Assembly: GCA_965205975.1 (NCBI GenBank)
Contig: OZ242195.1
Coordinates: 736,001-800,000, forward strand
Origin: Candidatus Latescibacterota bacterium
Lineage (GTDB): Bacteria; Latescibacterota; UBA2968
Reading direction: 5' to 3'
Length of the DNA: 64,000 nucleotides
The notes beneath the pieces were generated by a model. That model was not told the origin of the DNA and searched no databases. It was given only the letters and a program-made list of their open reading frames with translations. Both the position numbers and the translations under genes were made by a program. Shown piece by piece: positions 7,905-60,496 of this stretch. Positions within the stretch are counted from its first letter, which is position 1. Every line of letters starts with the position of its first letter.

Positions 7905-7960
7905 ACACGACACTGGAGGAGTACAGGTTATGGGACAAGCATTGACGGAGCGTGAAATCG
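7905..7960 (+). repeat. Direct repeat A1: RBS plus first 10 codons of the PhyH gene
   Basis: 48/56 identical to 10914-10969. Confidence 0.9.
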
Positions 7961-8724
7961 AAGCCCTCGTCCGTGAGGTCACAGACGAAGAAGTGGCTTT
8001 TTACCACGAATACGGGTGGGTCATGATGAAGCAACTCGTGGACTCGGAGTTCGCAACGGAACTCCTACGCGTTGGTCAAGCGTGGTTGAATCGCAATGAC
8101 GAAGAGAAGGGCGGCAGACGGTCCGTCGGCCTGGCGCGGCGAGAAGAGACCGAGCCGTTCCGCTCGTTCATGTTCAGCGAGCGCATGTCAAAGAACGCGA
8201 TGCGACTCGTGAACAGGAAGCGGCTCAAGGGTGTAGATATCCCACTTCGCTATCGCATCGACATCCTCCAACACAAGCCCCCGGGGGCAGCCGGAGCCAC
8301 TTATCATCAGGACTCGTCAGAGCACGGCTCTGATCGCGTGGGCGAACTCCAGTTCTGGCTTGCACTGGTGGAAGTGCCACCAGAGATGAGTGCCATGCGA
8401 TTCGTCAGCCGCTCACATCGCGAAGGACCGCTTGGCTCGGTATTCAAAGATGACCGGGGCAACCTGCTCGAGCAGTACCCAAATCTGACGTCTGTGCTGG
8501 AGCTCTCTCCGCCCTTCCATTACCAGCCGGGTGACTGCACTGTGCATCACGGATACACCGTCCATGGCGGTCCACCCAACAGCACCGACAAGTCGCGCTG
8601 GTCCTACCTCTTCTCGTACTCGCCTTCCGACACGCGATACTGGAACGGCACCGCAGCCAACTGGGGCAGCGAGCGGAAGCGTTTGAGTGACCCGAACAAT
8701 CCCACAGTCCATTTTTCCGAATAG
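7930..8724 (+). CDS. PhyH-family Fe(II)/2-oxoglutarate dioxygenase
   Basis: FYHEYGW, YHQD (HxD), GDCTVHHGYTVHG (distal H); GGAGG RBS. Confidence 0.88.
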   Translation: MGQALTEREIEALVREVTDEEVAFYHEYGWVMMKQLVDSEFATELLRVGQAWLNRNDEEKGGRRSVGLARREETEPFRSFMFSERMSKNAMRLVNRKRLKGVDIPLRYRIDILQHKPPGAAGATYHQDSSEHGSDRVGELQFWLALVEVPPEMSAMRFVSRSHREGPLGSVFKDDRGNLLEQYPNLTSVLELSPPFHYQPGDCTVHHGYTVHGGPPNSTDKSRWSYLFSYSPSDTRYWNGTAANWGSERKRLSDPNNPTVHFSE

Positions 8725-8741
8725 GGTTTCAGGGGGTTGAA

Positions 8742-9467
8742 ATGATTTCTGTACAACAATGGGATTTTTTTCAAGAACACGGTTATCTGATCGTTGAAAA
8801 TGTAATCTCTGTGCAACGATTGGTAGCGTTGCGAGAGGCCCTGGAAAAGAGATATGATCTGGAGGGCGAAAAGGCAGGGACAGAAGGATCGACCCCTCCG
8901 GGCGTTCGCAGGTTGTGCAATCTCATTGGTAAAGGCCGCGTCTTAGAAGAGCTGGCAATCGAGCCGATTGCATTGGAAATGGCCAGGCTGGTGATTGGAG
9001 AGGATATGCGCTGGCAGGCCATGAATTTTCACGATCCCATGCCCGGTGATCCGCGTCCTATTCAGGCAATCCATGCCGATCGATCGTTCTTTAAGAATTG
9101 TACTGCATACCTCAATGTGGTGTGGGCACTTGATGATATGACAGAAGAAAACGGTGCGACGCGCCTTGTGCCGGGATCGCATAAAAAACCCTGGCCCCGA
9201 GATGTTCTGGACGATCTCAAAGAGGCAGTTGCTGGAGAAATCTACGCGACCTGTAAGGCTGGAACTGGCATTTTTTGCCACGGTGATATCTGGCATGGCG
9301 CACGTGCAAACCTTTCAAAATCGCCCAGGCGTGTGATCCATATGGGATACAGTTGTCCAAACACTGCGCCTCAATATGAAATTGCAGGCTCTTTGACGCA
9401 GGATATTCGCGAGCGGTTGGGCGAGCATTGTGCGCTCATTCCAGATCCCCTATCGTCATTTGGTTAG
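8742..9467 (+). CDS. PhyH-family dioxygenase
   Basis: FQEHGYL, IHAD, NGATRLVPGSH, IWHG. Confidence 0.9.
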   Translation: MISVQQWDFFQEHGYLIVENVISVQRLVALREALEKRYDLEGEKAGTEGSTPPGVRRLCNLIGKGRVLEELAIEPIALEMARLVIGEDMRWQAMNFHDPMPGDPRPIQAIHADRSFFKNCTAYLNVVWALDDMTEENGATRLVPGSHKKPWPRDVLDDLKEAVAGEIYATCKAGTGIFCHGDIWHGARANLSKSPRRVIHMGYSCPNTAPQYEIAGSLTQDIRERLGEHCALIPDPLSSFG

Positions 9468-9475
9468 GAGATCTT

Positions 9476-10913: not shown

Positions 10914-10969
10914 ACACGACACTGGAGGTGCACAGGTTATGAGACAATCATTGACAGATCGCGAGATCG
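10914..10969 (+). repeat. Direct repeat A2: orphan RBS plus start stub (MRQSLTDREI) of a PhyH homologue
   Basis: Homologous to 7905-7960; followed at once by the RBS and ATG of a different gene (10989). Confidence 0.9.
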
Positions 10970-10988: not shown

Positions 10989-11735
10989 ATGTCAATTGAG
11001 CAATTACAACAGTATGGCCTAACCGGCCCTTTTGAGTTGGCAGACAAATCCCTCGTCGATGCCGTATGTGAGGTCGGGATAGAACTACAAGCGCTACAAC
11101 GCCAGGAAAATATCGTGCGCCGGTTGGCAGGACAAGAACCCCAATTTAGAACGAAGATCGATAGACACATGGAATTCAAGGCGATGAGAGACCTCTGTCT
11201 CGATGACAATGTGAAGTCCGTGGTGTCCGAACATTTCGGCAATGATCTTTTTATCTGGGGTAGCGTCTTTCAATTGAAATCTGAAGGCGTGTCAGAAAAT
11301 ATATGGCACCACGATCGCGCATACGAAAATGGTCGCGATCAAGTCAATCTCTATGACACCACCAATCATTTCTCTATTCTATTTGCGTTGACCGACATTG
11401 GGTATGGTGCTGGCCGCATCGAATATGTGAAGGGATCTCATCAACCCATTGATGGGTGGAACAGAGATATGCGATTTGTAAAACAAGTGCCAGAACTCGT
11501 CCATGATAGGATCGGCACACTCACAATGGAAAGAGGCCAGTTCACGGTGTTTCATTCTCAAATTATGCATCGCAGCCTGCCTTTTGAGTATGGCGAGCCA
11601 AGAATCTCATTGGCCGTCAGACTCGCGAGGAAGGGCACACAAATCCCCGATTATTATCCACAAAATCCAAATCCGGCCGCAGAAACACAAGGGATCGCCC
11701 GTTTCAATCCGTCCGCGACATTTTCTTTTGACTAA
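10989..11735 (+). CDS. PhyH-family dioxygenase
   Basis: WHHD, EYVKGSH, FHSQIMHRS. Confidence 0.88.
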   Translation: MSIEQLQQYGLTGPFELADKSLVDAVCEVGIELQALQRQENIVRRLAGQEPQFRTKIDRHMEFKAMRDLCLDDNVKSVVSEHFGNDLFIWGSVFQLKSEGVSENIWHHDRAYENGRDQVNLYDTTNHFSILFALTDIGYGAGRIEYVKGSHQPIDGWNRDMRFVKQVPELVHDRIGTLTMERGQFTVFHSQIMHRSLPFEYGEPRISLAVRLARKGTQIPDYYPQNPNPAAETQGIARFNPSATFSFD

Positions 11736-12910: not shown

Positions 12911-13736
12911 ATGCCCCCAACTCAGAAATTTGAAGAACGCGTCGTTCGCGTGGAGAAACCTTCCGCTCACTTCACGCTGTTGAGAAACGAAAAGGGTGAT
13001 TTCCTGGGCGTATCAGAAGGCAAAATAGCCGTCTTTGACCACGCCGATGACAAAGCGATCTGGAAAGAAGAAGGCGACGCCTATCGCCACGTGGTGTCGG
13101 GAAATTCGGCTGGCGCACAGGCCCGGTTTCGCCGTCGTGGCTCCGGATGACGGTGAACGCCAAGTGGGGGGGTGGCATTCGGATTATCCATACCTCTGGG
13201 GGATCGCCAGGAATTCTTCTGATGGCAATCGGATTGTACCGCACAATGCGCTGAATCTCGTGCTTGGCGTTCAGCGAAATTTGTGTGTGACTGAATTTAA
13301 GAGTGAAAATGGCGCGACCTGTTTCAAACTCGGATCGCATACGCTTGGGCAAGGCCCTCCTCCAGAATGGGGGAGTGGGAATACGTACAGGGAGGAGGGA
13401 TCTCGCGAGGCAAGGGGCCTCCCCTATACAGGCTCCGAAGCAGATGTCGTCGAGGCGCCGGCGGGCAGCTACGTCATCTATGATGCCCGAACCTGGCATC
13501 GAGCAGGTGTGAACCGCACGGACAAAAAGCGGGCGGCGATGCTTCAGTCCGTCGTTCCTATGTACATCATGCCTTTTATGGAGACCGCTCGTCCCTACAA
13601 GGAGTTCCTTTCAAGCCCTCTGGCGAGTCAACTTAAGGAGCGGGAGCATATCGAGTTGGAATCCCTCCTGGTAAGCCGAATTGATGGGCCTCAAGGGCGT
13701 ATTGCGATCACTATGGATGAGGAGCTTTCCAGATGA
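12911..13736 (+). pseudogene. Internally deleted, frameshifted PhyH-domain gene
   Basis: N-terminal frame MPPTQKFEE... (AAGGAG RBS) stops at 13150; another frame from about 13100 carries WHSD, NGATCFKLGSH and TWHRAG. Confidence 0.75.
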
Positions 13737-15706: not shown

Positions 15707-17113
15707 ATGCCACAACCGGCTCAACAGCCCAACATCCTGTTTGTGTTTTCCGACCAGCAGCGTGCATCGGCAATGGGGTGCTACTACGGCGATGAAGATC
15801 TGGAGACACCGCACTTCGACGCATTCGCCAGGCAGGGAATGAAATTGGAAAGTGCCGTGTCAACGACCCCGCTTTGTTGCCCCTACAGGGCCATATTGAT
15901 GACGGGATTACACGGCCATCGCATGGGGATAACGACCAACGGGTATCATCCGGATCTAAGTGAATATGCCCACATCGGCAAGGCTTTCAAAAACGCAGGG
16001 TACCGCTGTGGTTATATCGGCAAATGGCATTTAGGAGATGTACAACTCGATTCGGGTCATCCGATGCGTCTGGGATTCGACGAAGAATGGTTTGTACCTC
16101 TGGTATCGAGTCACGCGAGTCCCAATCGAAACTATGCGGTGAACAGCACTGAGACTGTGGTTGGAGAAGGGTTCGACAAGCCGCAGATCGAGGCCAACAG
16201 GGCCATTGAGTTCATTCGAGGACAGGGCGGTGGGGCGCCCTGGTGCCTGTTTCTTTCATGGTATCCCCCTCATCCCCCACTGGTATCTCCAGAGGTATAT
16301 CTCGAAAAATATCGGGGACGGGACCTGAAGTTTCATCCCAATGTGAAGACCGTAGATGCAGAGGCGTTCAATCGTTTTCAGGACCATTATGCGCATTATT
16401 ACGGTCTCGTAACGGGCCTGGATACTGAGTGGGAACGCTTGATGCAGGCCCTGGAAGACAGTGGTCAGGCGGAAAACACCATTGTGGTGTACACCTCGGA
16501 TCACGGTGAAATGCTAAACAGCCAGGGCTGGCGAGGCAAACGATGGCCTCATCGCGAATCCACCCAGGTTCCTTTTTTGATTCGATGGCCAGGCAAGATT
16601 GAAGCCAACGCCACACTGGACATGCCGTTTGGCACGCCAGACATTTTTCCCACGCTATGTGGACTCGCAGGGATCAATGTGCCATCAAGGTTGGACGGGG
16701 CCGATCTGTCCGGCGTCATCCTCGGCAGCGATTCCAATGGGCACCAGCAAGAGTACGCCTATATGGCGATGCATCACAGCTTCATTCCGTGGCCCGGCTG
16801 GCGCGGGATTCGCACAGCGAAGTACAATTACGCGCGAATGGAGGAAGGACCATGGGTGTGTTTCGATCTTGAAAACGATCCCTATGAACAGAACAACCTG
16901 GTCGAAGAGAATGGCGCGGTCGTGTCGGAACTGGATGGGCTTCTTGTAGATGCGATGAAAAAAACGGGCGATTCCTGGCGCGATGTCGGCAGGGAAGTAG
17001 GCGATTGGCAGGCGTGGCACGGCAATAAACAGATTGAGCAACTCGGATTGGATGCTGAATACCCGGGTTCCGAGGCCATTCGAATCTGGGCAGAACGGAA
17101 CAATCTTGTGTAG
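15707..17113 (+). CDS. Sulfatase
   Basis: PNILFVFSDQ, CCPYR, GKWHL, SDHGE. Confidence 0.92.
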   Translation: MPQPAQQPNILFVFSDQQRASAMGCYYGDEDLETPHFDAFARQGMKLESAVSTTPLCCPYRAILMTGLHGHRMGITTNGYHPDLSEYAHIGKAFKNAGYRCGYIGKWHLGDVQLDSGHPMRLGFDEEWFVPLVSSHASPNRNYAVNSTETVVGEGFDKPQIEANRAIEFIRGQGGGAPWCLFLSWYPPHPPLVSPEVYLEKYRGRDLKFHPNVKTVDAEAFNRFQDHYAHYYGLVTGLDTEWERLMQALEDSGQAENTIVVYTSDHGEMLNSQGWRGKRWPHRESTQVPFLIRWPGKIEANATLDMPFGTPDIFPTLCGLAGINVPSRLDGADLSGVILGSDSNGHQQEYAYMAMHHSFIPWPGWRGIRTAKYNYARMEEGPWVCFDLENDPYEQNNLVEENGAVVSELDGLLVDAMKKTGDSWRDVGREVGDWQAWHGNKQIEQLGLDAEYPGSEAIRIWAERNNLV

Positions 17114-17209
17114 CGAGCGGCGACTATCGAGTACGAGCCCGGTCGTCTCTTCGTCATTTACTGGGGACATGAGCCTGGCGAGGTGAGTTGTATCCAGGGG
17201 ACCTATTAG
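17114..17209 (+). pseudogene. Orphan C-terminal remnant, sialidase/BNR-propeller-like
   Basis: Reads RAATIEYEPGRLFVIYWGHEPGEVSCIQGTY* with no start codon of its own. Confidence 0.5.
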
Positions 17210-17230
17210 TCTAACATAAAAGGAATTGAA

Positions 17231-18478
17231 ATGAATCGCTCTGTTCTGGACTGGCCAACAGGTGTTACCGTCTATCACCCCGACCGATGTTATAATGGGT
17301 ACACGCTCGTTCACGGGCGAGGACCCTGGGATCCCGTGCGTGGTATCTCGGCTGAACAGGTCGATCGATGGCACTTGATAGACATGAAGGGTCAGGTGGT
17401 TCACGAGTTCTACGGAAACCCGGCGACGCAGCGCGGCTCTCAGCTATTTGAACGCGTTGCAAACGGCCACTATATCAGCAATGGGGCCTCCATCACCGAA
17501 CAGGACTGGGATGGAAATATTGTCTGGTCTCTGTCCTCAGACTTCCGCAAGGATGCGCGCCCAACGGGTTTCCATCACGACATCCAGAAGACTTCTGAAC
17601 ACACCTATCTCGCTATGGTCGCGGATCGCATCGATGCCCCTCAGGTATCGCGCGTCACACTCAAAGACGATCACATCATGGAAATAACTTCGGAGGGCGA
17701 GATCGTCTGGGAATGGTGGGGGCATCACCACTTGGAAGAATTCGGGTTCAGCGATCGTGCGAGGCAGATCATATTTGAAACTGGCGGGGGGCAACAGCCC
17801 GGACAGGAAGGGGACTGGCTCCATCTGAACACGCTTCACACACTTCCCGACAATCCCCTATATGATCAGGGCGGCACGAGATTCAAGCCGGGAAATATTC
17901 TCAGCTGTTCCAGAAATGGAAATCAGATATTCATTATCGAGAAATCGACTGGAAGCATCGTCTGGAAGTGGGGCTATTTGGATCAGATGGAAACCATGTG
18001 GTTGAACGGGACCGAAAGACAGAATCAATACCTGGTAGGCCCACACGATCCCAAAATGTTGCACAACGGAAATATCCTGATCTACGACAATGGAGGCGGT
18101 ACGGGTTATCCTCCGATTAATCGTTTCTACACCCGGCTTGTAGAAATCAATCCCGTGAGTGGAGAAGTCGTATGGGAATATGCTGCGGGGCCTCAGGCCA
18201 GCAAATTCCTGAGCATTGTTACCGGCGGTGTACAGCGTCTCCCAAATGGGAATACGCTGAGTCTGGACACGGACAAGGGACGGATCTTCGAAGTGACCTG
18301 GGAAGGTGAAATCGTGTGGGAGTACATCAACCCGAGAGGCGGATTCTACAGAACCCAGCGCATTGCCTACCTCGATTGCCCTCTGGATCCTCCTGACCTG
18401 GAGCCAGCAGATCTCCCGGTTCCCGATCACCTCGGCCTGCCGGTGTCAGATACCCTGGATTACTGCCCATCTCTCTAA
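17231..18478 (+). CDS. Arylsulfotransferase (ASST)-like beta-propeller protein
   Basis: GYTL, FHHD, DWLHLN, GPHDP, YDNG, QRLPNGNTL, GEIVWEYINP. Confidence 0.82.
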   Translation: MNRSVLDWPTGVTVYHPDRCYNGYTLVHGRGPWDPVRGISAEQVDRWHLIDMKGQVVHEFYGNPATQRGSQLFERVANGHYISNGASITEQDWDGNIVWSLSSDFRKDARPTGFHHDIQKTSEHTYLAMVADRIDAPQVSRVTLKDDHIMEITSEGEIVWEWWGHHHLEEFGFSDRARQIIFETGGGQQPGQEGDWLHLNTLHTLPDNPLYDQGGTRFKPGNILSCSRNGNQIFIIEKSTGSIVWKWGYLDQMETMWLNGTERQNQYLVGPHDPKMLHNGNILIYDNGGGTGYPPINRFYTRLVEINPVSGEVVWEYAAGPQASKFLSIVTGGVQRLPNGNTLSLDTDKGRIFEVTWEGEIVWEYINPRGGFYRTQRIAYLDCPLDPPDLEPADLPVPDHLGLPVSDTLDYCPSL

Positions 18479-18513
18479 AATTCGATGTCACCCTTCATTC
18501 TGACTACAGGATT

Positions 18514-20500: not shown

Positions 20501-20565
20501 AGAAAAGCTCCGGGGAAAATCGTGAGAAGAGATCACTGTATATCGAAAAAAAACCTGATATTACA

Positions 20566-22113: not shown

Positions 22114-22162
22114 TGATTTTCTCCTGCGAAAATTCCATTTAACGCTGAACCATTACATATAT

Positions 22163-47613: not shown

Positions 47614-47733
47614 CTATGCGGAAAACCCCAGGCCCGAAGCGTTGAATACGTCGATGAGGTCGGCGCCGTGCTTGTCGCCGACGCGGTTGAGCAGTTGGCG
47701 GCGAGTGAAGTTGCGGCCAAAGAGCCTGGGCAT
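47614..47733 (-). pseudogene. 5' stub of a DUF4432/aldose-1-epimerase-like gene
   Basis: AGGAGG RBS then MPRLFGRNFTRRQLLNRVGDKHGADLIDVFNASGLGFSA*. Confidence 0.6.
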
Positions 47734-47766
47734 GGGGGACCTCCTGTAGGAAATACTAATCGGTTG

Positions 47767-48591: not shown

Positions 48592-48604
48592 CGGATCTCC
48601 TCAT

Positions 48605-50710: not shown

Positions 50711-50946
50711 GTGGACGCTCCCGACTCTACGGTTTCGTGTGGTTCGTCGCAGCGGAAAACGACGAGTTTGCCGCTGTCGATGCGGTTTTTCACATCCCGC
50801 ACGAATTCACGGGCGAGGTTGGTATCGTAGAGTACCAGGGCGCCCGGTGACTGTGTGTGGGTTTGGAGTCGCTCCGATTTTTCACTCCAGGTCGATTGAA
50901 GCGTGTCGGATGCATCTCCTTCTGCGATAAGTATGACGTATGCCAT
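50707..50946 (-). CDS. Small hypothetical protein or remnant
   Basis: AGGAAG RBS, 79 aa, ATGA overlap with the downstream gene. Confidence 0.4.
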   Translation of the reverse strand: MAYVILIAEGDASDTLQSTWSEKSERLQTHTQSPGALVLYDTNLAREFVRDVKNRIDSGKLVVFRCDEPHETVESGAST

Positions 50947-51165
50947 GTGGTTTCTTCCTATTATGTGCTCATATCTAAATGAAGTATTCCTGCCTTTCGG
51001 TTATCAGGGGTATTATACCTAATTATGCGAACTTTTGTTCAAAAAATACGTCGGTTGCATGATGGATCAAAAACATGGCACCAGGCTCGTCAAAAGTCAG
51101 TTGGTAGTCAACGCCATTGAGCGTATCTTCCGTGCGAAATGAGCCATCTTCAGCCATTGAGGAGG

Positions 51166-53022
51166 TCAACTATGGTAGCGGATACAGAACTCCGCAAACA
51201 GCACCAGCGTGATGCGATCCTTCGAGATCGTATGCGGAAGGCATTTGACATGGCGTACGACACGGATGCTGCGCTCATCGTCCGCTGGAATCCGTTCTTT
51301 CCCCGTTTCAACGGCCACACCGTCGCCCAGCAATCCCTGGACTACGCCATCCTCCTGCTGCTGTCCGACGACCGCACCTACGGGACGGACGATGCCGGTG
51401 AGGCCAACCGAATCATTCGCCGAATCCTGGATCACCAGGACCTGCGACCGAAGTCCGAGACCTTCGGCAATTTCTTCTGGCGGTGGTAACGGGAATTCCT
51501 GGAGCATGACGCGGTGCATCATTTCCTTCATTAGTTGCTGACGCGTCTGCTGGTATGCCGGATCATGTACGACGTTGACCAGTTCGTCGGGGTCTCTGGT
51601 GAGATCGAAGAGTTCTTCCCCGTCATCGCGCCCTGGCGTGACCGAGTAGCGGAATTCGCTGTTTCGCAGCGTCTCTTTCCAGGGGAACTTCATGATCCCC
51701 TCATGGAAGGGCGACTCGCACAGGCCGCCGAACGACTCGGAGAATGCCGACTGCCGCCAGTCCGAAACCCGCTCTCCCTTGCACAGGGGCATCAGCGAAC
51801 GGCCGGCACATAGCGGATGGCCATCGCCGACTCCACGCCGCGACAGAGGCCTCGGATGATGTTCTATAAGCGTTTCGTGCATATCCAACACGGTAGGGCA
51901 GATGTCTTCGTGCTGCACGATGAGGTCGCAAGAGCTGCCCTGCTTCAGGCCCGGTCCGGCTACAATCAGCGGGATGCGGATGACGGCGTCGTAGTGTCTG
52001 GCGGATTTTCCGCCCAGATTGTGGTCCATGAGCATCTCGCCGTGGTCAGACACAAAGATGAAGTAGCTGTTCTCCATCCTGCCAACTTGTTCCAGGCGCT
52101 CCAGGATGCGACCGATCTGTTCGTCGAGGTGGATAAAATCGGCAAAGTAGAGCTTGCGGTAGTAGCGCCAGTTGGGGATCCTGTCAGGCCCATTCCAGTG
52201 GTCCGTGTCGTAACCGACAGGGTCGGGGATGAGATCCTCGTTGACCCTCTCCAGGAATCGCTCCGGCGGATGAAATGGGGGGTGGGGCTGAACATAGCTG
52301 ATGTGGGTGTATAGAGGTTGATCTGGGGGCGTTTCATCGATGAAATTCAGGGCATGTTCCGTGATCCAGTTGGTCTGGGAAATCTCTTCAGGGAAGGGTA
52401 GGGGATAGTAGCCTTCGGTGCGGGTTTTGTTCCCTCCGTCATCGCCTTTAGTCCATGCCATTTTCTTCTTTGCCCGGCGCATCCTTTCGGTCAGGTTGAC
52501 TTTCCGCTCGCCATACGCATCGTAATAAGGCAACTGAGAATTCCAGTTTGCCGGGGTTGCCATGATCGCATCATAGTGTTCGGGATGCTCCTTCTCGATC
52601 CAGTCGTGCCACTCGCCAGTCCGGTTGTCTTCGGTGTTGTGGACAACGTCCCAGCCATATTCCCGGTAGTCCGGGTATGGGTAGTATTCCGAGTCAAAGG
52701 GATAGAAGTGGATCTTGCCGAACGCGCCGGTTCGCCATCCGGCCATCTGCAATGTCTTCATGAAAGTGGGGATGTCGGGATTGAGCCGGTAGCCATTGGA
52801 GAGCAGGCCGTGGCCTCGGCTGGTCAGACCCGTGGCAATGCCCGCCCGGGCCGGACAGCAGACCGGGTTGTTGGAAAATGCATTGCTGAAGGTCACGCCC
52901 ATGCTCTGGAGGCGTTTCAGGTTGGGCAGGTCGCAGATGCCATTCATGGCCGCTTCCAGCCACTTGGCCCCCATCTGATCGACCATGAGGAAGATGACGT
53001 TGGGTTTGTTGTTTGAGTTCAT
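51166..53022 (-). CDS. Sulfatase that lost its native C-terminus near 51480 and reads on through the antisense fragment
   Basis: MVDQ, NPVCCPAR, SDHGE; similarity to paralogues ends at QEFPLPP. Confidence 0.85.
   Translation of the reverse strand: MNSNNKPNVIFLMVDQMGAKWLEAAMNGICDLPNLKRLQSMGVTFSNAFSNNPVCCPARAGIATGLTSRGHGLLSNGYRLNPDIPTFMKTLQMAGWRTGAFGKIHFYPFDSEYYPYPDYREYGWDVVHNTEDNRTGEWHDWIEKEHPEHYDAIMATPANWNSQLPYYDAYGERKVNLTERMRRAKKKMAWTKGDDGGNKTRTEGYYPLPFPEEISQTNWITEHALNFIDETPPDQPLYTHISYVQPHPPFHPPERFLERVNEDLIPDPVGYDTDHWNGPDRIPNWRYYRKLYFADFIHLDEQIGRILERLEQVGRMENSYFIFVSDHGEMLMDHNLGGKSARHYDAVIRIPLIVAGPGLKQGSSCDLIVQHEDICPTVLDMHETLIEHHPRPLSRRGVGDGHPLCAGRSLMPLCKGERVSDWRQSAFSESFGGLCESPFHEGIMKFPWKETLRNSEFRYSVTPGRDDGEELFDLTRDPDELVNVVHDPAYQQTRQQLMKEMMHRVMLQEFPLPPPEEIAEGLGLRSQVLVIQDSANDSVGLTGIVRPVGAVVGQQQEDGVVQGLLGDGVAVETGKERIPADDERSIRVVRHVKCLPHTISKDRITLVLFAEFCIRYHS
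51172..51489 (+). pseudogene. 5' fragment of a hypothetical gene, cut at a convergent junction
   Basis: GAGGAGG RBS, MVADTELRK...ILDHQD..FGNFFW, then runs into antisense sulfatase sequence. Confidence 0.65.
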
Positions 53023-53050
53023 CGACAAGCCTCTTATCAGGTTACATTTT

Positions 53051-54685
53051 TTAGTGAATACCAAACCAGAACAGATCACGCGGAGACACAGGATAATCCT
53101 GGCGGATAATCTGTTCCATCAGGCGATCTTTCATCTCCCGGCGTAAAGCGGCATGCTCCGGATCATTGACAAGATTCTTCTGCTCGTCCGGATCCGCCTC
53201 GAGATCGAAAAGTTGCTCGCCGTGTCCATCGGGGTAAAATGTATATCGGTATCTGGATGTGCGTACGGTGCGCGCCCAGGCTCCCAGAGTCCCTGGACCG
53301 AAGCATGGAAAAGATTCAACGTACGCCTCTTCCCGCCAATCGTCCGGCACCTCTCCACGGCAAAGCTCAACCAATGACCTTCCTGAAATCGCTGGCGCAC
53401 TGTCGTCCAGGTGGCCACCAAAATGGCGAAAGCGCAGGTGAGGCAGGGGCACGTCGGTCATTTCGAGAATGGTGGGGCAGAGGTCTTCCAGTTGTACGAT
53501 TTCCTGGCATATGGCGTTTTTCTGCAGGCCGGGACCCACAATGATTAGTGGCACTCGAATACCGCCGTCGTAGTGGCGCTCCTGTTTTTGCCAGAAGCCG
53601 TGATCACCGAGAAATTCACCGTGATCAGACACAAAAATGATGTACGTGTTGTCAAGACGCCCGGCGTCTTGCAAAGCCTTCCTGACCCGACCCAGTTGTT
53701 CGTCCAGGTGGGTAATGTCGGCAAAGTAGCAATGACGCTCGTGGCTGAGATCCGGTATCAGGGGGGGCTGTTCATTCGAACTGGATGTAACAGCTATATC
53801 TTTCATCCAGGATGGTCGGTCGTCGCTCTCGCCGTGCAACACCCGCGCCATTTTCTGAAAATATTCGGGTGCGTCAGTATCGTTGAGCCAATCCGCCGGG
53901 ACCGGAGCGGGGATTTTCTCGGGGTTGACGCGGTCCATGAATTCGCCTGGGGGACAAAACGGGCCGTGGGGTGCCACGTAGCTGATATGGACAAAGAAAG
54001 ACTGCTCCGAATGGGTGTCGCGGATGAAATCCAGCGCCCTTGCAGTTATCCACGATGACTGCGATACCTCCTCGGGAAACGGCAGTGTATAGGCCTTGGG
54101 AGAGTTCTTGGGCCACGCCTCTGTGGGGTGTGGATAACGCTCTTTAGCGGCGCGTATGGCCGGTCTCAGATCGACGCCATCGGGACCGTATTCGGCGTAA
54201 CCCGGAACAGCGGGCCAGGCCGTTGAAAGGGCCGCTTCATAATGTTCAGGATGCGCCTCTTTGACCCAGTCGAGCCACTCGCCAGCGCGGTCATCCTCAG
54301 TGCCGTGTACGACATCGAAACCATAGGGGTGGTAGTCGTGTACGAGGCTTTCGTGATGCGGCCTGAGGTGTAGCTTTCCGAAAGCGCCAGTCCGCCACCC
54401 TTCCTTTTGCAGTGCTTGCATGAAGGTCGGAATCTCAGGGTTGAGCGCGTATCCGTTCATGATCAAACCATGCGCTCTCGAACAAAGCCCGGTGGCAATC
54501 GTTGCCCGGGTAGGTGAGCATACCGGATTGCTGGAGAATGTCCGGGCAAAGGACGTGCCGTTTTCACGCAGCCAGTCCAGGTTCGGCAGGGCGCAGATTC
54601 CTCTGTCCCGAGCCACTTCGAGCCACCTGGCCGACAACTGATCGACCATGAAAAGGATGACGTTGGGTTTGTTTTGTGACTGCAT
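53051..54685 (-). CDS. Sulfatase
   Basis: MVDQ, NPVCSPTR, FGKLH, SDHGE. Confidence 0.92.
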   Translation of the reverse strand: MQSQNKPNVILFMVDQLSARWLEVARDRGICALPNLDWLRENGTSFARTFSSNPVCSPTRATIATGLCSRAHGLIMNGYALNPEIPTFMQALQKEGWRTGAFGKLHLRPHHESLVHDYHPYGFDVVHGTEDDRAGEWLDWVKEAHPEHYEAALSTAWPAVPGYAEYGPDGVDLRPAIRAAKERYPHPTEAWPKNSPKAYTLPFPEEVSQSSWITARALDFIRDTHSEQSFFVHISYVAPHGPFCPPGEFMDRVNPEKIPAPVPADWLNDTDAPEYFQKMARVLHGESDDRPSWMKDIAVTSSSNEQPPLIPDLSHERHCYFADITHLDEQLGRVRKALQDAGRLDNTYIIFVSDHGEFLGDHGFWQKQERHYDGGIRVPLIIVGPGLQKNAICQEIVQLEDLCPTILEMTDVPLPHLRFRHFGGHLDDSAPAISGRSLVELCRGEVPDDWREEAYVESFPCFGPGTLGAWARTVRTSRYRYTFYPDGHGEQLFDLEADPDEQKNLVNDPEHAALRREMKDRLMEQIIRQDYPVSPRDLFWFGIH

Positions 54686-54695
54686 AATGATTTCT

Positions 54696-55634
54696 CTATG
54701 CTGATTTTCCGGACGGGCAGATCGTGTCTATCTTGTCCAGGGTGGCTCTATCGAGTTCCCCATCGGCAGCGGCAGCGTTCTGTTTTGCCTGCTCGGGTGT
54801 CTTCATTCCGGGAATGGGGCAGGTAACGGCAGGATTGGCGAGGGTGAACCTGAGCGCGAGGTCAACCATGTTCATGCCTTTGGGTACTAACTCGCGCAGT
54901 GCCGCAACCTTGTCGAGTTTGGCGAGGAAATCATCGCGTTGACTTTTTCCTGGATTCCAGAGATCTCGAACCGTGTCTTCAAACCTTGTATCTGCGGTGA
55001 ATTTATCCGCCAAAAGACCCTGAGCGATTGGTCCTCGCAGTAACACCCCGATATTGTTGTCCAGACAGTGGGGGAGGATGTCATTTTCAGGTCGCCGGTT
55101 AAGGAGCGAGTAGTTGATTTGGCACGATGCACATGCGCCCTCTGAGTTGAGCGCTTTGAGCGAATTTAGGTCGTTGGTAGATATCGCGTAGTGACGGATC
55201 TTTCCCTCTTTCTTTAACAACTCAAAGGCTTCGACAAAGATCTCGGGATGTTCCGGGGTTCCGATGTGACACTGATACAGGTCGATATAATCTGTATCGA
55301 GACGGTAAAGGCTTGCGTGACAGCAATTGATGATGCTGTATATCGTCCTGTACCCGAGGGGGTCTCCCTGACGGCGTCCCCAGTTGCCAACCTTTGTCGC
55401 GATATAGACCTCAGATCGCTTGCTTTTCAGCGCTTTGCCTGTGTAGATTTCACTCTGACCACAACCGTAGCCATCCGCGGTGTCAAACAAATTAACGCCC
55501 GCGTCGAGAGCCGCGTTGATGGTGTCGAGGGCCTGCTTTTCTTCAACCGGGCCCCACTGGCCGCCGATGCCCCAGCATCCCATGGAGACAGTGCTCACAT
55601 TCCACCCCGTTTTCCCAAGCGTTCTATACTGCAT
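54696..55634 (-). CDS. Aldo/keto reductase
   Basis: FDTADGYG, IATKVG, DYIDLYQCH, PIPG. Confidence 0.93.
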   Translation of the reverse strand: MQYRTLGKTGWNVSTVSMGCWGIGGQWGPVEEKQALDTINAALDAGVNLFDTADGYGCGQSEIYTGKALKSKRSEVYIATKVGNWGRRQGDPLGYRTIYSIINCCHASLYRLDTDYIDLYQCHIGTPEHPEIFVEAFELLKKEGKIRHYAISTNDLNSLKALNSEGACASCQINYSLLNRRPENDILPHCLDNNIGVLLRGPIAQGLLADKFTADTRFEDTVRDLWNPGKSQRDDFLAKLDKVAALRELVPKGMNMVDLALRFTLANPAVTCPIPGMKTPEQAKQNAAAADGELDRATLDKIDTICPSGKSA

Positions 55635-55647
55635 GGTATTCCTCCGT

Positions 55648-56496
55648 TTATGCTTTTTTCCGACGAGGCGTCACGCGCCAGTCGGTTCGCAGTTTGGCAA
55701 CGCGGTCAGCCGGCTGCTGCAGGAAGCGCTTGACTCTTACACTGGCTTTCGCTTGCAGCTCAGGCCCGGCCAGTTCCCAGGCATTGTAGAACAGCCGGTC
55801 GCCGTTTGGTACGATGCGGATGTTCAGGGTGCGCCGGGGCTTGTGAGTCTGATTTACGCCTGCGCAATGCAGGCCTCCCGCGTTTACAATCAGTAAATCA
55901 CCCGGATCGCCGGTCGCCTGGATCTTGTTGCTGTCTGAATCCGGCTCGGGATCCATCATTTCGGGTTCGTCGGCTTTGAAACAATGTGTGCGCGGAATCA
56001 ACCGGGTGCCGCCATTTTCCGCTGAATAGCCGTCGAGCATAAAGAAGAACCACAGGCCGTTGTGCTTGCCTTCGTCCGTGAGGCCGGGCCTGAAGTCGCG
56101 ATGGAAGCGCCCCTGCCGCGCTTCCGGGTGATAGCGTACAGTGTTGGCAACGAGATCTAAAAAATGGTAGGTGCCCAGAGCGCGTTCGCAGATCCCGTGA
56201 ACGGTGTCGTGGTCGAGCAGATCCATGGCCGCTTTACCCCACATGAAACAGGCGCGGGCGTTCGGATTGATTGTGAAGTTGCGTTTTCCCTTTCCGTCGA
56301 GAATGCGCACTTCGGGCAACTTCATCCCTCCTCGCCACTCGGCGATATAATCATCCGCTGCACGCTGGGCGATATCCCGAAGAGGGTCGAGATACCCGGG
56401 TGCGATTTGCTCCCGCAGGATGACATAACCGTTTTCTTGCAGATCGGCTACATGTGCGTCCAATTCCCCGTCGCTCATTGGATGGACTGGTTGCAT
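55648..56496 (-). CDS. PhyH-family dioxygenase
   Basis: ENGYVIL, FHRD, NGGTRLIPRTH, GLHCAG. Confidence 0.88.
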   Translation of the reverse strand: MQPVHPMSDGELDAHVADLQENGYVILREQIAPGYLDPLRDIAQRAADDYIAEWRGGMKLPEVRILDGKGKRNFTINPNARACFMWGKAAMDLLDHDTVHGICERALGTYHFLDLVANTVRYHPEARQGRFHRDFRPGLTDEGKHNGLWFFFMLDGYSAENGGTRLIPRTHCFKADEPEMMDPEPDSDSNKIQATGDPGDLLIVNAGGLHCAGVNQTHKPRRTLNIRIVPNGDRLFYNAWELAGPELQAKASVRVKRFLQQPADRVAKLRTDWRVTPRRKKA

Positions 56497-56511
56497 AGGT
56501 TGATCTCCTTA
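56478..56511 (-). repeat. Direct repeat C1: RBS plus first 6 codons (MQPVHP) of the PhyH gene
   Basis: 32/34 identical to 60463-60496. Confidence 0.9.
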
Positions 56512-56535
56512 TTGTTCGTCCACAATGTTTGTCCT

Positions 56536-59043
56536 TCAGTCTTTTTTTAACTCGGGAATATTGTTCGGCATAAAAGATAGCTCTCGCATACCTTCGTCGC
56601 CCAAAAACTGAATTGTAACACCACCTATGGATAGCATGTGCTGCAAATCCTCAATATTTCTCACCTTCTCATTGTCCACAGACAAAATCACAGTATCGCC
56701 TAATAACCCTACCTGAGCGGCTTCTGACTCTGCTGGAACATCAATTACCAAAACACCATCATTGTGCTCTAATTCCACAGCCCCGATCACCGCAGATTCC
56801 CGACCATAATTTACCAGACTACGCAAGGTCGCCCCCATCCAGTCATACAGATCAGCATTGACATAGGTGCCCCAAAACTCAGCGTTTTTATCAAACGCTT
56901 GCCCCAGACCAGACCAGATGCGCACGTCAGATTTGAACCTCGAATCTTGCACACCAAATTGATCCATAGGGAAATTTTCAAATCCGACCTCAGATCCAAA
57001 TTCCGCCCGATAATCTCCAGATGATGGATTGTAAAAACCTGGATCACATGTTTTCGAATGCACGTCCAGACCCAACGCCCTGTGCTCTTCCGGAGGCTCA
57101 TAAACCGCAAACAGATTTTCATCCACCAAATTATCTTCTCCCTGGCAACCCGCCATTCCCATTCCGCGCGGTGAATAAGCTTCTCGACGAACAAGAATAT
57201 TTCGCCAAACCACATCGCCGCTATTGGGATACCAAACGTGTGGGCTGAATAAGGTAGAAATATTGTTCTCTACAGTTCGAAAAAAGCCTTCACGCAACTT
57301 GATACCACCTTGCAAACACAAATTGCCATAAATGTGATAATGCCCGGACCCATCGTCTAAATCAATATCGTATCCATGCGCACATTGAATCCGATTGTGG
57401 CGCAAAACAATTGGATCGACACAATCCAGCTTCGCCATCGTGCGCATGCGGGCGAATTCTTCAGGTGTTGCCTCGCCCTTTAGCTTCATCCAGTACCGAT
57501 CCCGTCCCCACGAATTATAAGCTCCGTGTTCTCGCGTGGCCATTGACGTATCAAAAATATCGTTCCATTCAATCACATGTCCACCCCAACATCCATCGTT
57601 CACATTGATCGCAGCACGCGGCACATCGTAAATACTATTATGGCTGACTGTAATCTCTTTGGCCTTAGAAATGAACACACCTGCAATCTGTTTCTCTACA
57701 CTGCCCAACTGCGTCATCAAATTGTCGTGAATCACACACCGGGCCGGATAATTGTTGTTCTGAGGCCCTGCTTCTAAATCGACCAACTCATGTCCTTCAT
57801 CCAGCATTTCAGACGGCAACTTTGCCATACTCTCATTCTCAAATGGCCTGCCATTTACCATCGGTGTTTCACCCCGCATACCTTCAGGCCACCCCCACCA
57901 ATGTGCCCATCGCGACCTCACGGCAGAATTATTTCCCTCAAGTAAAACAGCACTCGCACCCGTCTTTACAAACCGACACCCGCTCACAGTGACGTCCCGA
58001 CTATAATTTTGAATAAAAACCCCATTCCCACCTATGCGCTCAAACGAGCAATTTTGAACGGTGCACAATTCAGCGCCTTCAAAAACAACAGCGCCTCCCC
58101 GATACACCTTCCAATCGCCACCACTTGGTATGACATCCGTTTCCATAAACGTGTAAGACGTATGGGTCAGTGTCAGCCCATCCAGAGTGATATAACAAAC
58201 GGGGTTGTCCTCCGACCCTCGAAACTCAAACAAATGCCTCAGCACCACGACTTCCACTGTGGCATCGTCAAGAGTCTGTCCTTCTTCAGGCTTGAAATAC
58301 AGTGTATGCGTTTTTCGATCTAAAAACCATTCTTTAGGAGCGTCCAATTCTTCAAACACGTTTTCAATAAACATCCGTCCTTCAGCCAACACATCATACG
58401 GATTGGTTCTTCGCCCACTGTTTTGCCACCCACCTTCTACCTTCCGATCCTTCTCGTACTCAAAGGTATAAACCCCATCTGGATCTTTTTCCAAAATACG
58501 AAAGTGCAATGTACCCCACCCCATCGACATCATCCCGTGTACAAAAGCACCCACCGGATTGGCATATCCTTTTAAGCGCGCCGAATCAATGGCATCTTGA
58601 GAGGTCTCTGGCGAAATCCATCGAATGCTGCCATCAAAAAACCCATCTCGCGGATCAGCATTTGGATAGCGACAGCGAACCATCTTTTCACCATTGATAA
58701 AAAGCTGATCAAAATCCAAGCCCTCAGGCACCTTAGCCTTCACCAGCCCATCTCCGGCGTCTTCCCAAATCAAGTCCACAGACTCTGCCCCACTAACAAC
58801 AACCTCTTCGTCCTCATAAGCCCGATAAACAATGGGCGCATCTTTCGTCCCAGAATCTTCTGCACCAAAAATGAGTGTCTCGTTCAAATAATAAGTTCCC
58901 TGTCTCAAGCACACTGTTATCGGCCCGTTTTGTTTGCATGCACGAACAACCTCTTGCGCCTGTTTTAGCGTAGCAAGAGGTTGTTCTTCGGTGCCAGAAT
59001 TTCTATCATCACCTTTAGATGAAACAAAAAGCGTCTGACCCAT
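56536..59043 (-). CDS. Right-handed beta-helix protein with C-terminal PDZ domain (GH141-like)
   Basis: FVSSKGDD..GT..PLATL, FIENVFEELDAPKEW, HNSIYDVPR, DLDDGS; PDZ-like tail. Confidence 0.8.
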   Translation of the reverse strand: MGQTLFVSSKGDDRNSGTEEQPLATLKQAQEVVRACKQNGPITVCLRQGTYYLNETLIFGAEDSGTKDAPIVYRAYEDEEVVVSGAESVDLIWEDAGDGLVKAKVPEGLDFDQLFINGEKMVRCRYPNADPRDGFFDGSIRWISPETSQDAIDSARLKGYANPVGAFVHGMMSMGWGTLHFRILEKDPDGVYTFEYEKDRKVEGGWQNSGRRTNPYDVLAEGRMFIENVFEELDAPKEWFLDRKTHTLYFKPEEGQTLDDATVEVVVLRHLFEFRGSEDNPVCYITLDGLTLTHTSYTFMETDVIPSGGDWKVYRGGAVVFEGAELCTVQNCSFERIGGNGVFIQNYSRDVTVSGCRFVKTGASAVLLEGNNSAVRSRWAHWWGWPEGMRGETPMVNGRPFENESMAKLPSEMLDEGHELVDLEAGPQNNNYPARCVIHDNLMTQLGSVEKQIAGVFISKAKEITVSHNSIYDVPRAAINVNDGCWGGHVIEWNDIFDTSMATREHGAYNSWGRDRYWMKLKGEATPEEFARMRTMAKLDCVDPIVLRHNRIQCAHGYDIDLDDGSGHYHIYGNLCLQGGIKLREGFFRTVENNISTLFSPHVWYPNSGDVVWRNILVRREAYSPRGMGMAGCQGEDNLVDENLFAVYEPPEEHRALGLDVHSKTCDPGFYNPSSGDYRAEFGSEVGFENFPMDQFGVQDSRFKSDVRIWSGLGQAFDKNAEFWGTYVNADLYDWMGATLRSLVNYGRESAVIGAVELEHNDGVLVIDVPAESEAAQVGLLGDTVILSVDNEKVRNIEDLQHMLSIGGVTIQFLGDEGMRELSFMPNNIPELKKD

Positions 59044-59100
59044 AAAATCACTCCTTGCACACCTGGTTTTGAATAAGGGGTCATACTTATTTGGCGGAAA

Positions 59101-60447
59101 TCAGGATTGGAAAATCGTCCCGGGCCACGGGTATGCGTTGGATCCAGCATCATCGTCGATGGGGCCTTCCGGCAGTGTGGCTTGCCAATCCATGACCTGC
59201 TCTGACATCTGCTTGACCAGGGGCTCTTCAAATTTGGCGTGATTGACGAGTTCCATTGGGTCTGCGGGAATGTTGTAAAGTTCAACACGACTTCTGTCCG
59301 GGTTGAGAAGCAGCTTCCAGTCACCCTCGCGGATTGAAAGGATCGGGCTTTTGTGAAGGCAATGGCCGTGAACCCGAAATCGCCACTCCCACATCAACGG
59401 CGTCGTGCGATCTACTGAGTTACCTCGAAAGGCGGCTGTCATATCCTCGCCTTGCAGACCAATGTTGTCGGGAATTTCTACACCAGCGATAGAACAAAAA
59501 GTAGGCAACAGATCTACAGCACATAAGGGCGTCGTGTTGTCAACTTTGCCTTTTGGTCCGCCACTGCCTGGCCACCGAAGAATGAAAGGGGTTCGCACGC
59601 CGCCTTCGTAGAGGCTTCTTTTTCGACCTCGAAAGGGACCAGAAGAACCGACGCCACTGTGTGACGCATTTCGAACGTGGATATCCTCAGGGCCGTTGTC
59701 AGCTGAGAAGATGACAATCGTGTTGTCGGAAAGGCCCAGTTGGTCCAGCCGATCCATGAGCCGTCCAATGTGGTAATCTGCGTTGGTAACGACAGAATAG
59801 TAGATGCGTAGTGCACCTTTGTGTTTGTCTTCCAGGCCTTGAGCGGTAAAATTCATATAGGGTTCCATCTGCTCCTCTGTAGGATCCAGAGTGGCGTGGG
59901 TATCGAGCAACCACGCTTGAACAAAGAAAGGCTCATCCCGATGTCTTTCGATGAAGGATACGGTTTCATCTATAATTACCTCTGTAGATTGAGATCTGCC
60001 TTCGGGGGTCTCAATGGGGGGTCCGACCGCATTGAATGTTTTGGATTCGTCAATCCCATAAGCCGTGGTATCGGGTGCTTCTTCGCCCCTTCCCAGGTGC
60101 CACTTGCCAAAGTGTCCAACAGCATAGCCACTTTGTTGCAGGAGACCCGTGATGGTCGTTGCATCGGGATCCAACCAGTCTGGCATGCCGCGTTGGGCGT
60201 TCTGCTCGTGACCGGCAAAATGGCCATGTATGCCCCAGTGGGCAGGAAATCGACCCGTCATGACCGCTGCCCGGCTGGGTGAGCACACACCCGAGCACAC
60301 ATAGAATTGTGAGAAGAGAATACCCTGCGAAGCGAGCCGATCCAGATTTGGCGTTTTTACAAACTGGTGGCCGTAGCAACTCAAGTCACCCCACCCCCAA
60401 TCGTCGGCGAAGACAAATACGATATTGGGTCTTTTCGATTCAGCCAT
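59101..60447 (-). CDS. Sulfatase (N-acetylgalactosamine-6-sulfatase-like)
   Basis: ADDWG, CSPSR, GKWHLG, ADNG, YEGGVR. Confidence 0.92.
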   Translation of the reverse strand: MAESKRPNIVFVFADDWGWGDLSCYGHQFVKTPNLDRLASQGILFSQFYVCSGVCSPSRAAVMTGRFPAHWGIHGHFAGHEQNAQRGMPDWLDPDATTITGLLQQSGYAVGHFGKWHLGRGEEAPDTTAYGIDESKTFNAVGPPIETPEGRSQSTEVIIDETVSFIERHRDEPFFVQAWLLDTHATLDPTEEQMEPYMNFTAQGLEDKHKGALRIYYSVVTNADYHIGRLMDRLDQLGLSDNTIVIFSADNGPEDIHVRNASHSGVGSSGPFRGRKRSLYEGGVRTPFILRWPGSGGPKGKVDNTTPLCAVDLLPTFCSIAGVEIPDNIGLQGEDMTAAFRGNSVDRTTPLMWEWRFRVHGHCLHKSPILSIREGDWKLLLNPDRSRVELYNIPADPMELVNHAKFEEPLVKQMSEQVMDWQATLPEGPIDDDAGSNAYPWPGTIFQS

Positions 60448-60462
60448 TGCGATTCTCCTTTG

Positions 60463-60496
60463 TTGGATGGACTGGTTGCATAGGATGATCTCTTTA
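60463..60496 (-). repeat. Direct repeat C2: orphan PhyH start stub upstream of the sulfatase
   Basis: Copy of 56478-56511 with SD changed from AAGGAG to AAAGAG; encodes MQPVHPTKENRNG* overlapping the sulfatase ATG. Confidence 0.9.

Follow-up and report, generated by a model that had tools for sequence, protein, structure and literature searches.

The window analysed here is a stretch of 64,000 nucleotides in the Candidatus Latescibacterota genome G000 (other G numbers denote related Ca. Latescibacterota genomes and X numbers denote public runs). It contains three pairs of short direct repeats, and in each pair one copy heads a full gene of the PhyH family (Pfam PF05721 in all three). Gene calling places the starts of these PhyH genes at 7930 (+), 23117 (-, GTG) and 56496 (-). 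The features are as follows, in window positions unless a contig coordinate is given:

7800-64000, on to about G000:C1:826000 (no strand): PhyH- and sulfatase-rich catabolic hotspot with local, orientation-keeping shuffling
7905-7960 (+): pair 1, copy heading an intact PhyH gene (RBS and first 10 codons; alignment, Pfam, gene calling)
7930-8724 (+): g653, intact PhyH gene (PF05721; start from gene calling)
10914-10969 (+): pair 1 stub, probable 5' remnant of a deleted g653 paralog (comparison with relatives)
10989-11735 (+): PhyH gene after stub 1 (Pfam)
22251-23117 (-): g668, intact PhyH gene with a GTG start (Pfam)
23113-23130 (-): pair 2, copy heading g668, made of the last 7 nt of a nitrilase-family gene (with the RBS), a spacer and the first 5 nt of g668 (alignment)
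24876-24902 (-): 27-nt internal fragment of a nitrilase-family gene, matching 34811-34837 (repeat search)
26986-32577 (no strand): insert with an AAA ATPase, a PD-(D/E)XK nuclease and a WYL protein (Pfam, comparison with relatives)
34533-34550 (-): pair 2 stub, nitrilase stop plus the probable start of a deleted g668 copy (comparison with relatives)
34544-35428 (-): g679, carbon-nitrogen hydrolase (nitrilase family) with its stop codon within the pair 2 repeat (Pfam)
52949-53022 (-): 5' end of the sulfatase gene g694, 82-85% like the head of the sulfatase gene g695 at 54612-54685 (sequence comparison)
55648-56496 (-): g697, intact PhyH gene (Pfam)
56478-56511 (-): pair 3, copy heading g697 (alignment)
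59093-59256 (-): 3' end of the sulfatase gene g699, with a second 164-nt copy at G000:C1:800130-800293, just outside the window
59101-60447 (-): g699, sulfatase, the next gene after stub 3 (Pfam)
60463-60496 (-): pair 3 stub, probable 5' remnant of a deleted g697 copy (comparison with relatives and run contigs)
61844-61865 (-): head of the decayed sulfatase gene g701, with a second copy adjoining the g699 tail remnant outside the window
63200-63254 (-): head of the sulfatase gene g702, 98% identical to the head of the sulfatase gene g705 outside the window

The coordinates and identities given in the preliminary description are exact (48/56 for pair 1, 18/18 for pair 2 and 32/34 for pair 3). 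Exact 18-mer direct pairs no more than 20 kb apart have a chance expectation of 0.015 in the window. The genome has 851 direct repeats 0.4-20 kb apart with a score of at least 18, against 26 inverted repeats and 40 and 22 in two far-distance control sets. The three repeats are genuine and beyond chance. They had also been described as the RBS and first codons of a PhyH gene, with the second copy a stub followed by an unrelated gene. PhyH heads are present in all three pairs, but the 18-mer of pair 2 also contains the stop codon of a nitrilase-family gene, and the gene that follows stub 1 is itself PhyH. The stub lies downstream of the full gene in pair 1 and upstream of it in pairs 2 and 3. 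The window also contains relics of kinds other than PhyH starts.

Mis-assembly does not account for pair 3, which is covered by contigs from three public runs, one of them from a separate study: records 5 and 6 of X1 span both copies, record 11 of X15 spans the full copy and record 23 of X17 spans the stub. For pairs 1 and 2, the same junctions recur in independently assembled relatives.

Stub 1 is probably the head of a deleted paralog that is still intact in four relatives. This paralog, about 85% identical to g653, stands at the place of the stub in G004, G010, G015 and G016, and has differing deletions in G000, G002 and G009. The stub matches the heads of the intact paralogs at 48-52 of 56 positions and the heads of g653 at 46-48 of 56, and its upstream flank is that of the paralog.

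Pair 2 is most readily explained as an old nitrilase-stop/PhyH-start junction which survives as reciprocal halves. The stub is 18/18 identical in five relatives (G008, G009, G010, G012 and G016), and in G008 a 59-nt piece of the nitrilase gene remains upstream of g668. The 27-nt nitrilase fragment is a further relic within the 11.4-kb block. The insert at 26986-32577 has no high-identity match in the relatives compared, and its ends lie away from the repeats.

The second copy of g697 is whole in G006 and is reduced to a 5' plus 3' remnant in G012 and in run X5. Stub 3 is also present in G004 and G015, both of which are without a close full copy of g697. Stub 3 is likely to be the leftover of a deleted second g697 copy.

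The sulfatase genes have similar relics. The second head of g701 together with the g699 tail remnant is a collapsed g701..g699 block. The heads of g702 and g705 are 98% identical, whereas their proteins are 32% identical. Fusions in which g705 and g702 have swapped heads occur in G004, G015 and L062, and G012 has a fusion of the g695 head to the g694 body. The start-to-start mechanism put forward earlier appears as a by-product in two sulfatase head swaps. G008 has a two-gene block in two intact copies with 96-97% identity. A three-gene block has collapsed in G004 and G015, where fragments of all its genes lie 7-20 kb away from the intact version. None of the genomes compared showed a recent tandem duplicate with close to 100% identity.

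The region is a shuffling hotspot of degradative enzyme genes in a sponge-associated Ca. Latescibacterota lineage. Relative to G006, there are 8 order descents per 40 genes inside the hotspot and 6 per 370 outside; relative to G008, there are 3 per 54 and 5 per 735. Once a duplicate artefact is dropped, the contrast, which covers these two relatives only, is 7/40 against 6/370 for G006 (p=6e-5) and 2/54 against 5/735 for G008 (p=0.077, not significant). Third-position divergence to G008 is 7.3% inside the hotspot and 13.0% outside, about half that of the backbone. Since the PhyH and sulfatase genes outside the hotspot have background identity, the low divergence suggests that the region was recently exchanged between lineages.

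Orientation is kept at 133 of 134 junctions and order is changed at 24. The overlap is 2 nt or less at 87 junctions. A start or stop lies within 25 nt of 77 junctions (null mean 9, maximum 17 in 200 draws), although this count is inflated by design because the junction definition requires abutting alignments and so favours eroded boundaries. The Shine-Dalgarno core is found in 6 of the 43 junction microhomologies of at least 4 nt, and no common motif was seen across all junction rows. The proposed turnover without an integrase, with orientation kept and breakpoints at gene boundaries, is borne out. The loci of 16 genomes contain 26 5', 40 3' and 26 internal remnants, counted as gene-by-class types (six of nine loci from one group were omitted from the all-against-all set as likely redundant).

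Of 395 stub-type repeats, 14 covered a start in a naive genome-wide test, where shuffling gave a mean of 30. This set consists mostly of intergenic arrays and was replaced by a per-gene test with multi-copy DNA masked, in which the density of relics at both ends of genes is about 3-4 times that in gene interiors. The expected enrichment at gene starts is present in the per-gene test, with more relics at stops. Among 3816 genes, 12 have a start-covering stub and 14 a stop-covering one. For PhyH genes the number with a start-covering stub is 3 of 156, all within this window. Families with 5' remnants are 7 of 12 for PhyH and 13 of 53 for the others (p=0.036, uncorrected and with kin non-independent). 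Relic density has no relation to PhyH/sulfatase density in 100-kb bins (Spearman 0.004).

The repeats can be explained, with a probability of about 0.8, as scars of duplicate-then-delete shuffling (TDRL/SNAP-like) in a catabolic hotspot. On comparison of the sequences, they seem to be products of turnover and not the recombination sites of an integron-like system. A run of several genes would first come to stand twice, head to tail; this end state is observed, and the event itself is inferred. The redundant copies then shrink bit by bit through deletions with little or no need of homology, as seen at the junctions. The breakpoint positions suggest that a deletion halts before it harms the kept gene, at the upstream stop or the downstream RBS, so that small 5', 3' or internal stubs would stay behind. 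Loss of different copies would change gene order while orientation is kept, and a stub together with the surviving copy would mimic a direct repeat around a block, as the relatives illustrate. Shared gene heads may later act as ordinary short-homology recombination substrates, as in the two sulfatase cases. PhyH 5' stubs are somewhat enriched and all three named start-stubs of the window are PhyH, which the duplicate-then-delete model does not predict. Excision of a circle and its re-insertion nearby would lead to similar end states.

The second copy may come from additive uptake of a relative's allele, for which the odds seem slightly better than even, or from amplification within the genome, for which they fall a little short of even; both sources are inferred. 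Comparison of the remnants with their possible sources gives a mixed picture. Of 20 scored remnants, 5, among them both long G008 duplicates, match the copy in their own genome strictly better than any other (3 more are unscorable). The g699 tail remnant in G000 is 99.4% identical to L062, a foreign copy, and 95.7% identical to its own gene.

The preliminary description had proposed translation-start regions as integrase-free cassette sites, with blocks entering or leaving mainly through recombination between them. Breakpoints do cluster just upstream of Shine-Dalgarno sites, and for g668 and g697 alike at least 4 different genes occur as upstream neighbour, with the join at or close to the RBS. 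The sulfatase fusions g705/g702 and g695/g694 and the PhyH 5' stub excess (p=0.036) are also in line with recombination at gene starts, but the three named pairs are not, since each stub traces to a probable deleted second copy. No empty-site allele was found for any pair in the relatives fetched or searched. An empty site would place the anchors less than 100 nt apart; at loci with both anchors they are 1.8-3.9 kb apart for pair 1 (n=3), 5.3-9.9 kb for pair 2 (n=4) and 3.8-5.0 kb for pair 3 (n=4). A joint between the pair 3 copies, whether of an empty site or of a circle, is absent from the contigs of 4 runs, although contigs drop rare variants and rare excision is possible. Stub 3 persists in two genomes without a close full copy, most junctions overlap by no more than 2 nt (87/134), the Shine-Dalgarno core is in only 6 of 43 longer overlaps, and there are more 3' than 5' remnants (40 to 26). 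Start stubs affect only 12 of 3816 genes against 14 for stop stubs, and the three of 156 PhyH genes are confined to this window. Start regions are therefore improbable as the main recombination sites.

The absence of an integrase or attC site nearby, as first described, was confirmed by profile searches and a pattern scan. The best stretch for the integron integrase IntI (TIGR02249) scores 88 bits against a cut-off of 265, with none over the cut-off in the one genome searched. Six tyrosine recombinase matches were found genome-wide, the nearest more than 770 kb away; no serine recombinase was found in the genome, and Pfam finds no recombinase in the three bracketed blocks. A simple scan with the commonly known attC core pattern and size range gave 5 matches in the window, all within ORFs and none between genes. 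The co-oriented spacers of the window have a median of 39 nt (n=41).

The distance to the nearest tyrosine recombinase and the lack of a serine recombinase also count against the blocks being horizontally acquired inserts, with the repeats as target duplications or replacement fragments of an element at a gene 5' end. Pairs 2 and 3 have the layout expected of such an insert, with the stub first and the intact gene past the block, but in pair 1 this order is turned round. Most relatives share the bracketed genes, whose movements do not follow those of the repeats, the sole G000-specific insert ends elsewhere, and the uninterrupted target was not seen in the relatives compared. This origin is very improbable. 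Pure gene loss from a larger ancestral array of old paralogs, without new duplications, accounts fully for pair 1, where the 85% paralogs predate the species split, and for many differences in presence and absence. Loss cannot alter gene order, yet 24 of 134 junctions do, and there are duplicates at 93-98% identity and collapsed second block copies, so loss by itself has a similarly slight chance of being correct. Chimeric assembly of co-occurring strains is negligible, since even though the genomes are metagenome-assembled and the runs examined contain strain mixtures, the junctions recur in independent assemblies (the pair 2 stub in 5 relatives and the pair 3 stub in 2) and contigs from runs of two studies span the pair 3 copies.

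Duplicate-then-delete shuffling resembles several known systems. TDRL in animal mitochondrial genomes (PMC5569537) is similar in its local order change, kept orientation and short duplicated residues at breakpoints. Here, orientation is kept with local order change, and remnants of lost duplicates stand in the expected order (G004, G015 and the pair 2 halves). Unlike TDRL, this locus is on a bacterial chromosome, involves accessory catabolic genes and many overlapping rounds, and has a second copy that is possibly foreign. SNAP (Brandis and Hughes 2020, PMC7055797; experiment in PMC9016547) likewise has duplication followed by asymmetric loss and a new order. PMC7055797 states that direct evidence of SNAP in modern species was lacking, that leftover duplicates and pseudogenes with active matches would be a test, and that no unique mark remains of completed events. 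The present locus is rich in such leftovers. SNAP requires a selected duplication that is locked by essential-gene loss, with natural examples of 8-355 kb; here the blocks measure about 1-20 kb and consist of non-core genes, and reciprocal loss is seen.

Transfer hotspots free of mobile elements (Oliveira et al. 2017, PMC5635113, in excerpt) also have fast turnover at one place without an integrase, linked there to homologous recombination. In G000 a ComEC gene is present, and the hotspot is younger than the backbone. The excerpt covers gain and loss, whereas local reordering and nested remnants are additional here. In merodiploids and enlarged hybrids after DNA uptake (excerpts of PMC3784515 and PMC9551528), incoming homologous DNA similarly gives tandem or additive duplicates in which both copies are pruned by deletion. 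Those events were seen in the laboratory, cover 100 kb to more than 1 Mb and have IS, rrn or rhs repeats at their ends, unlike the kilobase-scale blocks here, which have no such bounding repeats. Integron arrays share co-oriented single-gene units with content and order that vary between relatives, but this locus has no IntI, no attC-like intergenic sites, no shared junction motif and ubiquitous partial gene remnants. No description of such shuffling in Latescibacterota was found in the literature searched, which included few subscription journals, and a term search of the available part of PMC12993501 gave no mention of sulfatase, island, duplication, rearrangement or synteny.

The way in which gene order shifts in bacteria in the absence of mobile elements is an open question. 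The repeats may record natural reshuffling by duplication and loss. The locus keeps all stages (an intact duplicate, a collapsed block, a two-ended remnant and an 18-nt stub). With these stages spread over a dozen closely related, partly complete genomes, it is directly testable where the duplicates come from and what part selection plays. The locus is also a warning that short direct repeats at gene starts are not necessarily attachment sites. A speculative and rather unlikely extension is that the region is a recombination-run gene library of co-occurring symbiont species, in which alleles land in tandem and are pruned to whole genes, and relic heads stay functional and seed in-frame start-to-start exchanges, some as translation-coupling leader ORFs. 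If true, this would be integron-like behaviour without a dedicated enzyme and direct natural evidence of SNAP-type reordering.

Conservation of the stub leader ORFs is not counted as evidence of function because a nearby stop is expected by chance. An ORF of 13-27 codons begins in each of the three window stubs and runs 5-31 nt beyond the next start; its frame is conserved in 2 of 2 relatives for pair 3 and, for pair 2, in 4 of 5, with a shorter frame in G010. Loss of mismatch repair was rejected as a cause since MutS is present. At the left edge, outside the blocks, Pfam identifies an IS630-like transposase together with a type I RM system.

The three repeat pairs of the window were recovered at the places and with the identities claimed for them on recomputation, and this observation is confirmed.

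Repeat pairs in the window (stub, the copy other than that heading the full gene)
7905-7960 and 10914-10969: pair 1, 48/56 identical, full gene g653 first, stub second
23113-23130 (heading full gene g668) and 34533-34550 (stub): pair 2, 18/18 identical, stub first in gene direction
56478-56511 (heading full gene g697) and 60463-60496 (stub): pair 3, 32/34 identical, stub first in gene direction

All three full genes encode PhyH proteins, as previously described. PhyH accounts for 8 of 53 scanned ORFs of the window and for 147 matches in the source genome (G000); gene numbers come from our own simple gene caller and are approximate. The chance expectation for an exact 18-mer pair within 20 kb in the window is 0.015. 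The window corresponds to G000:C1:736001-800000 and is drawn from a single 5.56-Mb contig. Close relatives of G000 are titled Ca. Latescibacterota, 14 of 19 public runs holding window 54000-62000 carry a sponge metagenome label, and long matching contigs are present in the two sponge-labelled runs examined.

The preliminary description took these repeats as sites where gene blocks recombine like integron cassettes. The named repeats are not supported as such sites; their stubs trace to deleted gene copies. An intact g653 paralog sits exactly at the place of the pair 1 stub in four relatives (G004, G010, G015 and G016). Identity between this paralog and g653 is 85-87%, and the paralog belongs to a separate clade. 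The stub matches the paralog heads at 48-52 of 56 positions, compared with 46-48 for the g653 heads, and has the upstream flank of the paralog. Therefore, the 48/56 match is old paralogy laid bare by deletion. The same paralog is gone from relatives G002 and G009, with differing deletion endpoints.

In the pair 2 18-mer, the last 7 nt of the nitrilase-family gene g679 (including the stop) are followed by a spacer and then by the first 5 nt of g668. In one of the two copies g679 is retained and g668 lost; the other retains g668 and has lost g679 except for the letters serving as the g668 ribosome-binding site. In relative G008, 59 nt of g679 remain upstream of g668, and G000 has a fragment:

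24876-24902: g679 fragment, 27 nt

Pair 2 is a reciprocal loss from a duplicated g679/g668 junction. For pair 3, the region upstream of sulfatase g699 contains a complete g697 together with a 98-nt 3' end of reductase g696 in relative G006, the g697 head and tail with the middle deleted in relative G012 and public run X5, and the g697 head only in G000, G004 and G015. Whole-genome searches of G004 and G015 found no close full g697, just a 71% paralog, so the stub there has no recombination partner.

The actual result is a natural record, well preserved, of gene order being shuffled through duplication and loss. Gene order in 12 relatives shows local swaps with numerous gains and losses, and every stage of duplication and loss was found by within-genome comparison. 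G008 has g664-g665 as two intact copies (96-97% identity).

Intact duplicate in G008
L025:11403-13484 and 16623-18705: TIM-barrel and oxidoreductase gene pair, two intact copies, 96.4% identical, 5.2 kb apart

G004 has one and G015 two collapsed versions of a three-gene block, each made up of ordered pieces of all three genes and lying 7-20 kb away from where the block is intact. The 242 junction records reduce to 134 distinct junctions, with orientation kept in 133 and order changed in 24. Junctions lie <=25 nt from a start or stop in 77 of the 134 (null mean 9, maximum 17), under a rule biased toward eroded ends and with events common to kin counted in the set. Overlap length is at most 2 nt in 87 junctions, between 3 and 9 nt in 30 and at least 10 nt in 17; an SD core occurs in 6 of the 43 overlaps of at least 4 nt. 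The sole orientation-changing junction is a third g653 paralog (L036:7239-8046 in G006 and L066:179), inverted and ~50 kb away. The remnant census of loci from 16 genomes, which includes in-place remnants of genes without a surviving copy, counted gene-by-class types: 26 were 5', 40 were 3' and 26 were internal. For families found intact in 3 or more genomes, 5' remnants occur in 7/12 PhyH families versus 13/53 others (p=0.036), a modest bias, and 3' remnants in 5/12 versus 23/53.

Other eroded genes were also seen. In relatives, one PhyH gene encodes ~395 aa; its G000 counterpart (window 12911-13736) is split in two with ~350 nt missing, and g701 (61716-61859) is cut to 47 codons. Just past the window, at G000:C1:800130-800311, the g701..g699 block occurs a second time in collapsed form: a 22-nt piece of the g701 head abuts a 164-nt piece of the g699 tail. 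This remnant resembles a foreign allele more than it does the resident gene.

Second gene copies were once present and were then lost piece by piece, which changed order and left orientation unchanged. Deletion would run as far as the nearest retained stop codon or ribosome-binding site. Duplication followed by deletion is the probable overall explanation (about 0.8). Of 23 remnants tried, 20 could be scored, and for 5 of these, the long G008 duplicates among them, the genome's own copy was a strictly closer match than any other; the g699 tail remnant of G000 is 99.4% identical to relatives' locus L062 versus 95.7% to its own gene. G000 has MutS and a ComEC gene, the latter alone being no proof of competence. 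Additive uptake from relatives agrees with the ComEC gene and the region's young age, and PMC3784515 and PMC9551528 describe ways in which taken-up DNA leads to duplication.

The shuffling operates like mitochondrial tandem duplication-random loss (PMC5569537) and SNAP, in which duplication and asymmetric loss give a new order (PMC7055797; PMC9016547; PMC8046335), and sits within a hotspot of the type presented in PMC5635113. It is not assignable to SNAP, whose definition also calls for selection on the duplication and loss of essential genes. The literature searched held no report of such shuffling in Latescibacterota.

Start-to-start recombination that keeps an expressed gene holds for two sulfatase gene pairs, but these two pairs stand against a total of 134 junctions. 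At the protein level, sulfatases g702 and g705 share 32% identity, but their genes have a 55-65 nt head in common at 94-98%:

63200-63254 and G000:C1:801648-801702: common g702/g705 head, 55 nt, 98%, both sulfatases intact

The g702 body has g705 upstream sequence and head in G004, G015 and L062, and the g694 body has the g695 head in G012. These swaps require ordinary short homology only. Mosaic g702/g705 heads are carried by relatives. Among 3816 genes genome-wide, stubs are start-covering in 12, stop-covering in 14, near-stop in 13 and internal in 25; the few start stubs speak against start sites, and the PhyH cases (3/156 genes) are all the window's pairs.

Wherever a locus contained both anchors of a pair, the proposed empty-site allele was absent. 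Such an allele predicts an anchor distance <100 nt; by fuzzy matching, distances were 1.8-3.9 kb for pair 1 (3 loci), 5.3-9.9 kb for pair 2 (4) and 3.8-5.0 kb for pair 3 (4, including G000). No g679-g668 empty site occurred among 30 relatives searched with window 19500-37000, and every single-contig case of both genes retained genes between. Contigs of 4 runs on 44001-64000 held no joint between the pair 3 copies, though rare events could escape contigs. Integron identity was rejected for the region, in line with the described lack of integrase and attC near the blocks: none of 6 tyrosine recombinase matches in the genome (nearest >770 kb away) came near the IntI cut-off, no serine recombinase was found in the genome, and the 5 attC-like core matches all fall within ORFs.

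Genome-wide, close direct repeats are in strong excess (851 versus 26 inverted). Achaz et al. in 2002 reportedly found such an excess to be general in bacteria. Order descents affect 8/40 syntenic genes inside G000 743-826 kb versus 6/370 outside when compared with G006, and 3/54 versus 5/735 with G008 (p=6e-5 and p=0.077, one artefact dropped each). Compared with the backbone the region is younger, with identity higher inside than outside (96.6 versus 93.8% for G008; 94.0 versus 91.8% for G006) and third-position divergence lower (7.3% versus 13.0%). PhyH and sulfatase genes outside the region have background identity. In 5/18 same-genus genomes, distant paralogs were the only matches to window 54000-62000.

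Other relic-rich bins of G000:C1 lie at 2.1-2.2 Mb (15), 0.9-1.0 Mb (7) and 1.6 and 3.3 Mb (6 each), and are not PhyH/sulfatase-rich. An insert at window 26986-32577, with no high-identity match in relatives, encodes a double AAA ATPase, a PD-(D/E)XK nuclease and an HTH-WYL-WCX protein, and looks like a defence module. The left edge of the hotspot (window 417-7644) has a two-ORF IS630-like transposase, type I restriction S and R subunits, a YgjP-like protein and a RelE-family toxin-antitoxin gene. A selenocysteine tRNA is located at G000:C1:3425281-3425378.
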